Shown one piece after another: positions 28,225 to 31,290 of a stretch of 40,353 bases of DNA. Both the position numbers and the translations under genes were made by a program. This DNA comes from a virus: IMG/VR virus record IMGVR_UViG_3300021387_000033, positions 1 to 40,353 of that record, one strand, 5' to 3'. The first letter of the stretch is position 1; the number at the start of each line of letters is the position of its first letter. A model generated the notes under the pieces. It was given only the letters and a program-made list of their open reading frames with translations. It ran no database searches and had not been told where the DNA came from.

Positions 28225-28712
28225 TTATCCTCCTTAACAGTACTTATACCGTTTTCTTCACATTCTTTAATAATTCCGTCCATAAACCTTCCAAATTGAA
28301 TTGTATCCATTTTTCTAGAAGGGACGTATATTTTATAAAATGTATATTCTTTACCATTATTTCCTATTCGTTTATCAATTTCATCATAATAATCAAAATA
28401 TTTTTCAGGCTCTATTTCACTTAATAAAGATACTATATCGTAATCACTATATTCTTTAATCATATGCTCGTGTAATTCATCATTACCTAAGTTTAACTTT
28501 TTAGCTAGGTTCTTTTGTAATACCCAACTCATATCATTTTGAGATAATTTTCTTTTTCTAGTTTGTTTTGCTAAATCTACATTAATTATATCCGTATTTG
28601 CAAGTTTTTCTAGTTCGTCTACGTCGTATATATCTAGAATCTCTATTGTTATTTTAGGTCTTTTAGTTATATAGTCTCTAGATATATCTAATATCTTACC
28701 AGTAGTTTTCAT
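28221..28712 (-). CDS. Hypothetical protein (163 aa)
   Basis: Supplied ORF, with an ATGA overlap to its neighbour. Confidence 0.5.
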   Translation of the reverse strand: MKTTGKILDISRDYITKRPKITIEILDIYDVDELEKLANTDIINVDLAKQTRKRKLSQNDMSWVLQKNLAKKLNLGNDELHEHMIKEYSDYDIVSLLSEIEPEKYFDYYDEIDKRIGNNGKEYTFYKIYVPSRKMDTIQFGRFMDGIIKECEENGISTVKEDK

Positions 28713-28900
28713 TGTAAAATTATATTTTTAATTTCATAGACACTATTTCTAAGCATCTTTTTAAATTTTATAAAATGTTCTACTTGCATAGGTTCACATA
28801 TAATTATTGTTTTAGTTTTCTCGTTGTAATAAATTTCATAAATTAAATTTTCATAAACTCTTTTCAAATCTTTGTTATCCCATATAGTTATCTTCTTCAT
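28709..28900 (-). CDS. Hypothetical protein (63 aa), first gene after the RNA array
   Basis: Supplied ORF with a GGAAGG RBS. Confidence 0.55.
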   Translation of the reverse strand: MKKITIWDNKDLKRVYENLIYEIYYNEKTKTIIICEPMQVEHFIKFKKMLRNSVYEIKNIILQ

Positions 28901-28920
28901 AAAAATACCTTCCTATCTTA

Positions 28921-29046
28921 TAAAAAAACAAGGCACTTACATTACGTGCTCTACCATTCTGAGCTATTTATCATACTGATAAAGTTGGAATCGAACCAAC
29001 GACACCGAGGTTACAAGCCTAAGTATTTATTTGCTGAATGTGCCTT
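28921..29046 (-). ncRNA. tRNA-like domain B: circularly permuted tRNA-Thr(UGU)-like, closed by the stem AAGGCAC/GUGCCUU plus U7
   Basis: Minus-strand order is: anticodon arm (29022-29006, loop CUUGUAA), variable GUGUC, T arm GUUGG-UUCGAUU-CCAAC (29000-28984), acceptor hairpin UUUAUCA-GUA-UGAUAAA (28983-28967), UA, D arm GCUC-AGAAUGGUA-GAGC (28964-28948). Confidence 0.7.
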
Positions 29047-29069
29047 TATATTATTTATTTATTAAACAA

Positions 29070-29169
29070 GACTCATTATTTTAGTAATCTCTTAATCCTC
29101 TTGAGTATATGAAATTATCATAGTTGGAGTTGAACCAACGAATATTACTTAACTTTTGCTGTACGAGTC
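29070..29169 (-). ncRNA. tRNA-like domain A: YrlA-style permuted tRNA mimic without an anticodon loop
   Basis: AGUAA-UAUUC-[GUUGG UUCAACU CCAAC]-[UAUGA UAAUU UCAUA]-UA-[CUC AAGAGGAUUAA GAG]-A-UUACU, closed by an outer stem GACUC/GAGUC. Confidence 0.7.
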
Positions 29170-29261
29170 TTTAATTTATTTTCTTTTTAAACAAGGCTAT
29201 CTAATAATCCAAATTAACAGCTTGGGACAAATATTGGTTGTCAAAATAGTTGCAGTAATAG

Positions 29262-29378
29262 CCTTTATTTTAATGAATACCATAGAATAGATATAATAGA
29301 TAGCAACGTCCATAACCCACGCTATCATAAGGTTTTAAGGCTTATATATCTACTCTACGCTACCCATTAAAGGATAGC
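29262..29378 (-). ncRNA. X module copy b
   Basis: H1 is GCUAUCC-UUUAAU-GGGUAGC. H2 is GUAGAGUAGAUAUA / UAUAUCUAUUCUAU. Tail is GGUAUUC-AUUAAA, complementary to the H1 loop. Confidence 0.6.
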
Positions 29379-29419
29379 AGTAAAATAACGAACTACATTT
29401 AATTGAAGTGCAAATTCCA

Positions 29420-29600
29420 AACTAAGATGCACCACGAAATATATGTTTTGGAGATAATGGTATAAAAATGATAAATTGTGCGACAAATACCAAAACAATA
29501 AAAAACATAAATAGATAAAAACAATAATATGCATGAATACATTAATTTAATAAAATACCATTATAACATATATTTCGTGCTTCACCTTAATTGGTCAAGC
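29420..29600 (-). ncRNA. X module copy e
   Basis: H1 is GCUUGACC-AAUUAA-GGUGAAGC. H2 is ACGAAAUAUAUGUU+AUAAUGGUAU paired with AUACCAUUAU-(CUCCAA bulge)-AACAUAUAUUUCGU. Tail is GGUGCAUC-UUAGUU, complementary to the loop AAUUAA. Confidence 0.6.
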
Positions 29601-29643
29601 ACTTTCTTGTATCCTGCAAGTTAAGGATTGCAATTTCCTAGTA

Positions 29644-29776
29644 CTTTAATAAGCACCACCTAATAGATAAATAATTTAAACTATGTAATCACCACAAAAT
29701 ATAGTTCAGGAAAAATATAAATTTGCCCATTCTTTTTATTATATTTATCTACTAGGTGCTACCAATTAAGGTAGCA
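29644..29776 (-). ncRNA. X module copy a
   Basis: H1 is UGCUACC-UUAAUU-GGUAGCA. H2 is CCUAGUAGAUAAAUA / UAUUUAUCUAUUAGG. Tail is UGGUGCUU-AUUAA. Confidence 0.6.
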
Positions 29777-29800
29777 AAATATTAATTATAAAAGGTGAAC

Positions 29801-29881
29801 AAAGGACTTTCTATCTTCATTAGCAGTGAAGTGCAATTTAGTTCCCAAAACTAACGCTTTTTGTTTGCTGTATTGTCCTTT
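29801..29881 (-). ncRNA. 5' domain closed by AAAGGAC/GUCCUUU and containing an anticodon-stem-loop mimic
   Basis: CUUCA-CUGCUAA-UGAAG (29831-29815) has the canonical C32 U33 NNN A37 A38 loop format. A second hairpin is UUAGUU-UUGGG-AACUAA. Confidence 0.45.
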
Positions 29882-29904
29882 TAAGTAACTTAATTGTAAC
29901 ACTT

Positions 29905-31290
29905 TTATTCTTTATAATCAATATCTTTTTTATATTTTTCTAGAATCTTGTCAATATATGTTGTCATATCAAAGTTGTTTTCTAGTAATTTTAATATTTG
30001 TAAATTATAACCACTTAAGTAAATGTTTCCATATTCGTCAAATTCTGGAACTGTCTTATTTCTATCATTAAAATTCCACCAAATTAATTTTGTATTAGCT
30101 TCGTGTTGTTTAAAGATATTCATTAATTCTTCCTTGCTTTGACGTGAACCATAATCAAATTCCATATCACTCATTACGATTATATATTCAGGATATTTTT
30201 TTAATCCTTTTAATAAATCCATAACTTTACCAAAATCAGTATTTGAACAATCTCCAGTATACATTGAATCATATTGTTCTTTTAATGTATTACCTTTAAT
30301 TGTCATTAATTGAGGATTTGATGAGAATGATATTAATTGATTTGGTGCATAAGTAGAATGAGTAGCTAATGCGTGACATACTGACATAGCTCTTACTCCA
30401 ATATCGTTTGGATTAGAATAATCTCTTCCATAAAAACTAGAATACATTGAACCTGAAGTGTCTAAAACACAAATAGCGTTCATTTCTACTCCTAAAGTAG
30501 CATTATCTACTATTTTCTTTCCAATAATATCATTAGCTTCTGCGTTAGATTTTGTTGCTGTCTTATATGCGTCGTGTACGTTTGCAGTAGCTACATTTAC
30601 TTTAGCCTCATTATTCTTAACTTTTTCTATATATTCTTTAAATCTAGGAGAAATATCTTCTCTAGTGTTAAATGTATTTAAATATTTAGTCATTGCAAGA
30701 GAAGGTACTTCTTCGAAATCAATTTCTCCAACTAATGGGTGAACATAATTACCTTGCTTAAATAATTCATTTAATGGAGTTCCTTCTACTTCTTCAGCAT
30801 AAGATAATTTATATTCAACTGTTGAATCGGTTTTAATTAATTTTCTATATTCTTTTTCAGTTATTCCCCACATTTTACATAATGCTTTAGCAATTCTTTT
30901 ATCTTTACCAGTTAATCTAGGCATCCATTTTTTAGCTAATTCATTACCAGTTAATGAAGTTTTTAAAAATGCAATATTTTCATCAGTAGGAATATGCCAT
31001 AAATCGTCATATCTACCAGCTCTTACTACATTGTAAGGTTCTACTTCTGATAATTCCATTAACTTTCTACCTAAATCTCTTCTACCTAAACCAAATCTAG
31101 GGTCTCTAACAAACATTGAAAATAATTTTTCTTTTTCAGATTTTCCAATTTTTACTTCGTCTAAGTTCTTTTCGAAAAATGGAGTCATAAAGAATAAGTC
31201 AGTTAAATTATTTCCTGTAGTCTTATAAGCTACGTCTCCATTTTCAGTTCTTTTTGTGTTTAATATTTTTTGTAATTCATTCATTTTCAT
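29905..31290 (-). CDS. DUF2828-type TROVE/vWA-like protein (461 aa)
   Basis: N-terminal RTENGDVAYKTTGNNLTDLFF, central EVPSLAMTKYLNTF, C-terminal vWA with a MIDAS-like VLDTSGS. Family assignment is from memory of DUF2828 signatures. Confidence 0.6.
   Translation of the reverse strand: MKMNELQKILNTKRTENGDVAYKTTGNNLTDLFFMTPFFEKNLDEVKIGKSEKEKLFSMFVRDPRFGLGRRDLGRKLMELSEVEPYNVVRAGRYDDLWHIPTDENIAFLKTSLTGNELAKKWMPRLTGKDKRIAKALCKMWGITEKEYRKLIKTDSTVEYKLSYAEEVEGTPLNELFKQGNYVHPLVGEIDFEEVPSLAMTKYLNTFNTREDISPRFKEYIEKVKNNEAKVNVATANVHDAYKTATKSNAEANDIIGKKIVDNATLGVEMNAICVLDTSGSMYSSFYGRDYSNPNDIGVRAMSVCHALATHSTYAPNQLISFSSNPQLMTIKGNTLKEQYDSMYTGDCSNTDFGKVMDLLKGLKKYPEYIIVMSDMEFDYGSRQSKEELMNIFKQHEANTKLIWWNFNDRNKTVPEFDEYGNIYLSGYNLQILKLLENNFDMTTYIDKILEKYKKDIDYKE

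Follow-up and report, generated by a model that had tools for sequence, protein, structure and literature searches.

Gene context of the ORF-free stretch

We analysed a 40-kb phage genome (IMG/VR record IMGVR_UViG_3300021387_000033, 40,353 nucleotides (nt); hereafter the window), in which a gene for a 461-amino-acid (aa) Ro60-like protein (29905..31290, minus strand) is followed on the same strand by an array of structured RNA modules, together a candidate ribonucleoprotein (RNP) system of the Ro60/Y-RNA type. The plus strand of the window carries the large terminase, portal and tail fibre genes, and the minus strand an early/recombination block with a DnaD-like loader, Erf and NinB, inside which the 461-aa gene lies. 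The gene stops at 29905, its downstream neighbour occupies 28709-28900, and the 984 nt between them hold mechanically called open reading frames (ORFs) of 31-55 aa only.

A sequence-only reading of the window had described 28921-29904 (minus strand) as a 984-nt ORF-free stretch that parses into seven consecutive stem-closed domains and ends in a 7-bp stem followed by U7. This description was borne out: the largest ORF is 55 aa, single-domain folds of the single sequence reproduce the borders of all seven domains, and AAGGCAC/GUGCCUU closes the last one, followed by G and U7. ORFs at the same position in homologous phages, which that reading had named as counter-evidence, are not what the close relatives carry; among thirty related viral loci compared (numbered with the prefix L), these have 400-1800 ORF-free nt after the gene. 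A blastn search of the locus against GenBank phages returned only a short coding match, in Lak megaphages. On the minus strand, the stretch of ~1000 nt folds more stably than 20/20 shuffles (z = -3.9). By domain, z is -1 to -2.2 for four domains closed by a shared element that we call the handle, and -4.7 to -6.3 for the long hairpins that we call X elements (including the copies at 2882-3170).

At gathering thresholds, no Rfam family matched anywhere in the window, and permissive Rfam scans gave sub-threshold YrlA and tRNA matches plus noise (mir-577, snoR30, Plastid-ycf2) only. ARAGORN called no tRNA gene in the whole 40-kb window, and the Rfam tRNA scores of 17.3 and 15.6 bits lie below the threshold of 29. 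These searches bear on the proposal, raised as an alternative by the sequence-only reading, that the 984 nt make up a single large ornate RNA like GOLLD or ROOL. Such an RNA would fit the size of the stretch, the absence of ORFs and the tRNA genes with which relatives are associated, but no Rfam family reached its gathering score in the window, 28600-30100 gave no GOLLD or ROOL match even at E <= 10, and the stretch consists of self-contained units whose number, order and type vary between close relatives, even in the 99%-identical locus L001. We therefore regard a single large RNA as scarcely credible.

A predicted Ro60 fold outside the TROVE family

The 461-aa protein combines a helical N-terminal DUF2828 region with a C-terminal vWA domain (DUF7788) that has a complete MIDAS. 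Pfam cut-offs were passed by DUF7788 (51.2 bits, cut-off 27.1; 1e-13) and by DUF2828 (38.4 bits, cut-off 29; 9e-10), the latter in agreement with the DUF2828 signatures claimed from the letters alone. The MIDAS-like DTSGS noted in the same reading is present, with D277, S279, S281, T351 and D375 invariant in 54 sequences. Pfam vWA_Ro60 matched at 3.3e-4, under its cut-off, and Pfam TROVE gave no match at E <= 1. PHROG 850, annotated 'RNA-binding protein', was matched at 1.4e-50. When a profile of 16 relatives was searched against the PDB, the first match was the vWA domain of human and Xenopus Ro60 (E 5e-4); a phmmer search with the single protein had returned spurious thioredoxin matches only, so that a profile was needed.

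An AlphaFold2 model built from the 54 sequences (predicted local distance difference test 84.7, predicted template modelling (TM) score 0.82) was compared with the PDB by Foldseek. The best 11 matches were all Ro60, Rsr or phage Ro60 (E 5e-9 to 2e-5, TM about 0.41-0.55), with entries 1yvr, 1yvp, 2i91 and 9nf8 (Xenopus and human Ro60), 2nvo (Deinococcus Rsr) and 9l5y (Thermus phage phiLo Ro60), which supports the Ro60/Rsr-like organisation first proposed for this protein from its sequence. The alignments to Ro60 span the full chain over about 480-560 columns, with ring closure lying outside the comparison, and PDB proteins that have only the vWA domain in common reach TM 0.25-0.28 at most. Among the predicted viral structures of BFVD, the best matches were DUF2828/DUF7788 proteins of phages and giant viruses, followed by phage proteins labelled 'TROVE domain' or 'Ro-like RNA binding', so that the matches grade continuously from DUF2828 proteins into TROVE and 'Ro-like' phage proteins. 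DUF2828/DUF7788 proteins also appear in BFVD for Pithovirus, Marseillevirus, CroV and Mimiviridae.

Taken together, the Pfam, profile, Foldseek, BFVD and MIDAS results indicate that the 461-aa protein is, by its predicted structure, a Ro60-fold member of a sequence family distinct from TROVE. Homologues were found by tblastn in 700 of 50,697 GenBank phage records, where frequent annotations are 'RNA-binding protein', 'Ro-like RNA binding protein' and 'DUF2828'. Since this protein family is already labelled Ro-like in phages, the novelty of the locus sits in its RNA partners. The closest GenBank phage homologue, at 43% identity, lies in the Prevotella Lak megaphages (MK250015-MK250029; 540 kb, unannotated), for example at 58224-59591 of MK250021.1.

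A conserved handle closes the RNA modules

The unifying feature of the array, missed by the sequence-only reading, is the handle, with the consensus 5'-AAAG-stem (4-7 nt)-1-3 nt-AC(A/U)GCAA...stem'-CUU(U)G, usually followed by U. It is common to four of the seven domains in the window, which we number as modules 1 (29800-29881), 2 (29192-29266), 3 (29067-29172) and 4 (28922-29047), all on the minus strand, and reading of the ORF-free stretches in related loci showed nearly every stem-closed unit to be built on the same pattern. The handle helix has 7-10 bp (5'-AAG.../...CUU-3') with A and G at its flanks, and (N)AC(A/U)GCAA stands unpaired directly after the 5' strand. ACAGCAA is constant across lineages and the flanks are lineage-dependent; the smallest modules consist of the helix plus a loop beginning ACAGCAA and nothing more. 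Pairing of ACAGCAA with the 3' CUUGU was considered and dropped as geometrically implausible, the two lying at opposite helix ends.

Several results argue that the handle is a real helix. A mechanical scan of the loci found 64 handles on the gene strand against 8 on the opposite strand and 2-9 in shuffled loci. In a test that presupposed no pairing, 131 of 408 sites with a loose 5' motif had a perfect 7-nt Watson-Crick partner within 300 nt, compared with a mean of 10 and a maximum of 18 when the 7-mers were exchanged among sites; among the 131 paired sites there are 40 distinct stem tetramers, and in 116 the partner is followed by G. In an alignment of 12 flush-ended modules with a hand-written structure, the handle helix, T arm and D arm were 93% paired, against 25-46% with the partners slid, and the covariation score was reached by 0/500 shuffles. 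Handle positions 4, 6, 7 and 8 each show two to four pair types. Covariation across homologous phage loci, which the sequence-only reading had put forward as a check, is thus found in both the closing stem and the arms. In L003a (5998-6116), L008 (5643-5763) and L003b (5848-5977), a U-A pair (AAU.../...AUU-G) stands where the handle elsewhere has an invariant G-C (AAG/CUU), so that even its most conserved pair has undergone a compensatory change.

No model in Rfam 15 recognises the handle, and at Rfam gathering thresholds 16 bacterial loci gave tRNA and one SAM riboswitch only. The full-text literature searched held no account of the handle, the supplementary tables of Chen et al. 2014 (with possible cluster-L-type phage loci) lying outside this coverage. 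Within Rfam 15 and the searched literature, the family of handle RNAs thus seems to be new, as do the modularity of its payloads and its wide distribution. This agrees with the suggestion that a DUF2828-linked multi-module RNA of this size had not been described; the protein family, by contrast, is already annotated as Ro-like in phages.

Payloads imitate anticodon arms and permuted tRNAs

Between the two strands of the handle lies a payload that differs from module to module. Module 1, the 5' domain of the sequence-only reading, was delimited by sequence and fold (closing stem AAAGGAC/GUCCUUU followed by G, with ACAGCAA) and holds two anticodon-arm mimics with 5-bp stems and 7-nt loops: 29838-29854 with loop UUUGGGA (Pro UGG-like) and 29815-29831 with loop CUGCUAA (Ser GCU-like). 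The UUUGGGA loop is kept throughout the clade and even in the distant loci L030 and L048. The second loop, CUGCUAA in the window, reads CUUUUAA, CUUUGAC, CUGUAAA or CUGUUAA in close relatives (anticodon positions UUU, UUG, GUA, GUU and GCU over the set), and its hairpin is 100% paired, with 5/5 pairs covarying. A module of this type leads the array after the gene in L003-L007, L009, L012, L013 and L036. Module 2, which the sequence-only reading had listed as a domain closed by AAGGCUAU/AUAGCCUU, was recognised by handle scan, sequence and fold; it has the variant ACUGCAA, and within its payload lies a 5-bp/7-nt hairpin whose loop reads CUGUUAA (Asn GUU-like).

Modules 3 and 4, formerly 'tRNA-like A' and 'tRNA-like B', are permuted tRNA mimics. 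Module 3, supported by the handle scan, the alignment and a weak Rfam tRNA match, consists of a T arm, a closed acceptor-like hairpin and a degenerate D arm, without an anticodon arm. Module 4 is circularly permuted, with the permutation point between the D and anticodon arms, and runs from the anticodon arm (loop CUUGUAA) through the T arm (GUUGG-UUCGAUU-CCAAC) and a closed hairpin in the place of the acceptor to the D arm. All four arms appear in its minimum free energy fold, and RNAalifold on module-4 homologues recovered the anticodon, T, closed acceptor and D arms with 13 of 18 pairs compensatory. All arms covary across 9-12 homologous modules.

Across the family, 92 payload hairpins combine a 5-bp stem with a Y-U-NNN-R-N loop, 62 of them anticodon-loop-like and 30 T loops, where 6-10 would be expected from shuffled or random segments. 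The loops of close relatives are Pro-, Ser-, Asn-, Thr-, Lys-, Gln- and Tyr-like, and in some relatives the payload is a tRNA in normal order whose weak acceptor stem is stacked on the handle. In the 99%-identical locus L001 (5387-6650), the module-3 payload has a new sequence, in which compensatory changes preserve the pairing of the acceptor-like and D-like hairpins, and handle and flanks are unchanged; this looks like cassette-like turnover. L001 also carries a fourth X element.

In bacteria and in 22 phages, Ro60 orthologues adjoin YrlA tRNA mimics, and a Ro60 recognition motif (GNCGAAN0-1G / GGUCCGA) marks a proposed Rsr contact near the YrlA 5' end (Chen et al. 2014, PMC4201824). The only strong Rfam match of the array is that of module 4 to YrlA (RF02553; 48.3 bits, E 2e-9, 28919-29033), which remains below the gathering score of 69 and has the Ro-binding-site stem of the model mismatched; module 4 scores because it has the same order of T arm, closed acceptor and D arm. 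Sub-threshold YrlA matches also occur in L003, L005, L006, L008 and mycobacteriophage Lumos, with 28.7-43.5 bits in relatives. What stands of the earlier assignment to YrlA-type tRNA-like RNAs is therefore this arm order and the covarying helices, and not membership in YrlA itself.

The resemblance to Ro60/YrlA loci goes further. In both, a protein with a ring and a vWA domain lies beside small RNAs on the same strand (here within the 4-kb criterion used for YrlA), often several per locus, and at least one RNA has an end-to-end stem and a tRNA-like domain with T arm, loop-closed acceptor and D arm. The differences are that the protein here is DUF2828/DUF7788 rather than TROVE, that the stem is AAAG-stem-ACAGCAA/CUUG rather than GNCGAAN0-1G, that a separate anticodon arm is usually kept in the permuted mimics here, that many modules are only anticodon-arm mimics or empty, and that arrays reach 4-8 modules. 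An ordinary TROVE/YrlA system as catalogued by Chen et al. 2014 would account for YrlA being the best Rfam match of module 4 and for the Ro60 fold of the protein. It is nevertheless a very improbable description of this locus, given the score of 48.3 against a gathering score of 69, the mismatched model stem, the unmatched Pfam TROVE and the three of four modules that are not YrlA-like at all. In addition, GNCGAAN0-1G, checked by eye only, was not seen in the handle consensus (~180 modules) or in the four window handles.

Transcription of the array

A promoter-like site picked up by a scan (TTGATT-17-TACAAT with a TG extension; 29893..29921, minus strand) overlaps the end of the gene, and its -10 element ends 11 nt ahead of the first AAAG. 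TGnTAYAAT or TA(A/G)TATAAT occurs 0-13 nt past the stop codon in the window and in most close relatives. The promoter scan, which was generic, gave no more matches in the region than chance, and internal promoters in the array were dropped because their match counts equal chance. The arrays of relatives end in ordinary hairpin-U terminators; in the window, the closing stem of module 4 together with U7 probably terminates the transcript, and a terminator scan missed this end because the 'loop' there is an entire domain. From the sequence features at both ends we infer a separate, strongly expressed non-coding unit behind the gene.

Handle and gene are linked across phages and bacteria

We examined the linkage further in 80 loci taken from genome bins of bacteria and archaea, in which the protein is 24-72% identical. 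These bins include Bacillota, Mycoplasmatota, Gastranaerophilales, a gammaproteobacterium and Bacteroidales, and many are probably prophages or mis-binned phages. The handle was present on the gene strand in about 70 of the 80 loci, in 1-8 copies, mostly directly upstream of the gene (15-700 nt). In the clade of the window, the modules lie downstream of the gene, the four window modules at 24-980 nt on the same strand.

The upstream position in most bacterial loci, immediately before the gene (15-300 nt) and on its strand, is what one would expect if the handle hairpins were cis-regulatory leaders or trailers through which the protein autoregulates its own mRNA, rather than free small RNAs. 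We consider this quite unlikely, as the modules of the window clade lie downstream behind a conserved -10 element of their own, occur elsewhere in up to 8 tandem copies with elaborate, fast-changing tRNA-like payloads, and are also found kilobases away from the gene.

Isolated phages show the same association. In mycobacteriophage Lumos, three modules (flanks GGAC.../...GUCCAG) fill an unannotated 380-nt gap behind an 'RNA-binding protein' gene. The FelixO1-like Escherichia phage vB_EcoM_E9 (L111, PP886229.1; 4001-8700) carries, shortly behind the gene, two modules (...ACAGCAA...GGUCUGG) and an unannotated tRNA-like sequence between tRNA-Glu and tRNA-Asn, and Listeria phage LMSP-25 (L113, KJ535722.1; 3200-7620) has three modules (...UUCCUG) just before the gene. 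The 'RNA-binding protein' gene of phage E9 heads ~18 tRNA genes. The DUF2828 gene of LMSP-25 lies among tRNA genes, 1.3 kb upstream of a gene for an RtcB 'tRNA-splicing ligase', a neighbourhood that echoes the Rsr-RtcB RNA-repair operons of bacteria.

The window system thus shares with phage tRNA arrays gene homologues that head or sit in such arrays (E9, LMSP-25 and jumbo phage contigs) and payloads that copy tRNA arms; it differs in that the window holds no functional tRNA and in that the module RNAs are permuted or lack an acceptor end. Both sides of this comparison enter into a further explanation, namely that the modules are tRNA genes in decay or of an unconventional kind, that the handle is a leader-trailer pairing for processing, and that the protein serves tRNAs generally as a chaperone or in maturation. 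Real tRNA arrays do surround distant homologues of the gene, and ARAGORN or Rfam calls some payloads of relatives tRNA, but the window has zero tRNAs, many modules hold only loops or anticodon-arm mimics, a permuted order without an acceptor end cannot yield a tRNA, the genuine tRNAs of the same arrays are absent from the handle-scan matches, and the handle is kept from actinophages to coliphages. On this balance the explanation is unlikely.

An exact scan of IMG/VR for the RNA pattern gave 68 matches with a 3' partner, 27 of which have the gene nearby, always on the same strand (27/27) and at a median distance of 602 nt; among pattern matches without a 3' partner, the gene was near in 4/55. 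Of the remaining 41 modules, many are found at the margin of the examined DNA or on contigs longer than 100 kb. A module can thus be distant from the gene or lack one altogether, and the linkage need not be exclusive. L116, an IMG/VR contig labelled as a giant-virus metagenome-assembled genome, has three tandem modules (157-715, minus strand). Because giant viruses also encode DUF2828/DUF7788 proteins, the handle system may extend to viruses of eukaryotes.

A candidate Ro60/Y-RNA-type RNP from other families

Ro60 with its Y RNAs is a long-studied RNP that has stayed functionally opaque, and to our knowledge only one class of bacterial and phage RNA partners (YrlA/Yrn) has been catalogued for it. 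The locus described here is probably an RNP system of the Ro60/Y-RNA type in which both the protein and the RNAs come from other families. The candidate phage Ro/Y-RNA-like RNP of the sequence-only reading is in this way upheld in substance, with a Ro60-like fold beside Y-RNA-like tRNA mimics. What carries this interpretation is the protein fold, the conserved handle with its covariation, the gene linkage and the mimicry of tRNAs and anticodon arms. Decayed tRNAs, autoregulatory leaders and one ornate RNA are less consistent with the data.

In the mechanism that we propose, a promoter directly behind the gene for the DUF2828/DUF7788 protein, with its Ro60-like helical ring domain and its MIDAS-bearing vWA domain, would drive a short non-coding unit containing four handle RNAs. 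The handle would serve as the docking site for the protein, and the exchangeable payload inside it would imitate a permuted tRNA, as in YrlA, or one to two anticodon stem-loops. Modules could be released by cuts in the A/U-rich spacers, perhaps also at the long X hairpins. The resulting RNP would present tRNA look-alikes to tRNA-recognising proteins such as modification enzymes, nucleases, and repair or decay factors, acting as a tether or decoy during infection.

The nearest studied case is Thermus phage phiLo, whose Ro60 binds two adjacent Y-like RNAs (Yrl1/Yrl2) and the host PNPase (PMC12135203; PDB 9L5Y, 9KOP). Both phages have a Ro60-fold protein and adjacent Y-like RNAs, binding and PNPase recruitment are shown in phiLo, and 9l5y is among the Foldseek matches of the window protein. 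Unlike the window modules, however, the phiLo RNAs were recognised through a CGAA motif together with a bulged stem, lie upstream, and have no reported tRNA or anticodon mimicry (PMC12135203), and the kinship of the two proteins is at the level of the fold only.

A number of points weigh against the proposed RNP. Pfam TROVE is unmatched, and the TM-score of the model to Ro60 is only about 0.5. The handle modules are only modestly stable as single sequences (z -1 to -2.2), and the X elements inside the array fall outside the explanation. Within a few kb of surrounding DNA, 41 of the 68 pattern modules have no gene. The handle is unlike the known Ro60 motif, so that docking is argued from co-occurrence alone, and for the RNP as a whole we infer RNA binding, processing and biological role from sequence.

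As to what such an RNP might do, the tRNA arrays and the association with RtcB, the anticodon-arm mimicry and the fast turnover make interaction with tRNA-directed enzymes the most likely theme. The handle with its tRNA pieces and the fast-changing anticodon mimics suggest a link to tRNA-directed host defence. A bolder version, which we hold as a tentative and rather doubtful idea, is that DUF2828 proteins and handle RNAs make up a class of Ro-like RNPs, so far unrecognised but widespread among phages, giant viruses and bacteria, which displays interchangeable anticodon-arm or whole-tRNA decoys to host tRNA-targeting enzymes, for example the anticodon nucleases of defence systems. If it were true, the fast turnover of the mimicked anticodons would be the footprint of an arms race, and the window phage would carry decoys alone and no real tRNA.

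On the interpretation as a Ro60/Y-RNA-type RNP, the logic of Ro60 and its Y RNAs would be repeated with a second protein family and a second RNA family that have a simple, searchable signature. Protein homologues in FelixO1-like coliphages, Listeria P100/A511-like phages and cluster-L-type mycobacteriophages would make the role of Ro-like RNPs testable in easy systems. Stretches beside phage tRNA arrays that are now blank or labelled 'hypothetical protein' could receive a function-linked label.

X elements in the array and before the terminase operon

The remaining large domains of the array are three X elements on the minus strand. Copy a (29639..29777) has a P1 hairpin GCUACC/GGUAGC, a long P2 hairpin with a variable tip, and the tail GGUGCUUAUUAAAG; it was delimited with nhmmer 5' and 3' profiles (z = -5.2), and it folds more stably as the sense than as the antisense strand, by 11 kcal/mol. 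Copy e (29416..29599) has the architecture of copy a according to the nhmmer profiles, with a P2 that differs in sequence and keeps its complementarity. In copy b (29262..29376; nhmmer profiles, z = -4.9), the tail runs into the AAAG of module 2. Directly before the ORF 3176-3595 and the gene for the large terminase, the plus strand carries two more X elements, at 2882-3032 (z = -6.3) and at 3075-3170 (z = -4.7); in the latter, the conserved tail, GGUGCUUAUUAAAGGAG, extends into the ribosome-binding site.

X elements have no handle; P1, P2 and the conserved tail are common to copies a, e and b, and the base of P2 is GUAGAU/AUCUAU or unrelated yet complementary. All 12 copies compared fold more stably as the sense than as the antisense strand, by 5-20 kcal/mol, and each contains 3-7 G.U pairs, which indicates that the structure is selected in RNA. 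Two folds compete, one with P1 and one in which the P1 loop and 3' strand pair with the tail; the second covaries between copies, as judged by eye. Profile searches found X elements only in the close clade of the window. Because further copies precede the terminase operon, the X element is probably a genome-wide regulatory or processing element of this clade and stands outside the Ro-like system as such. The listing of X-a, X-e and X-b as domains of the array was accordingly right in folds and borders, and they belong to a different, clade-specific long-hairpin element that is not specific to this locus.

Phages are known to use RNase III processing hairpins, as in the early RNA of T7 and in Bacillus phage SP82, and the put antitermination RNAs of HK022. 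X elements resemble both in being a long hairpin with imperfect pairing, or a pair of neighbouring stem-loops, within transcribed non-coding sequence where a unit of the phage transcript begins or between two units; they differ by a large variable tip domain and have no Rfam match. By this analogy, the leading candidates for their role are RNase III-type processing and put-like read-through. A likeness of the X tail (GGUGGUGC) to a T-box was considered and discarded as superficial only. Short hairpins also stand between the X elements at 29600-29638 and 29377-29415 (both minus strand), for example AUCCU-UAACUUGC-AGGAU, and belong to neither the handle nor the X family.

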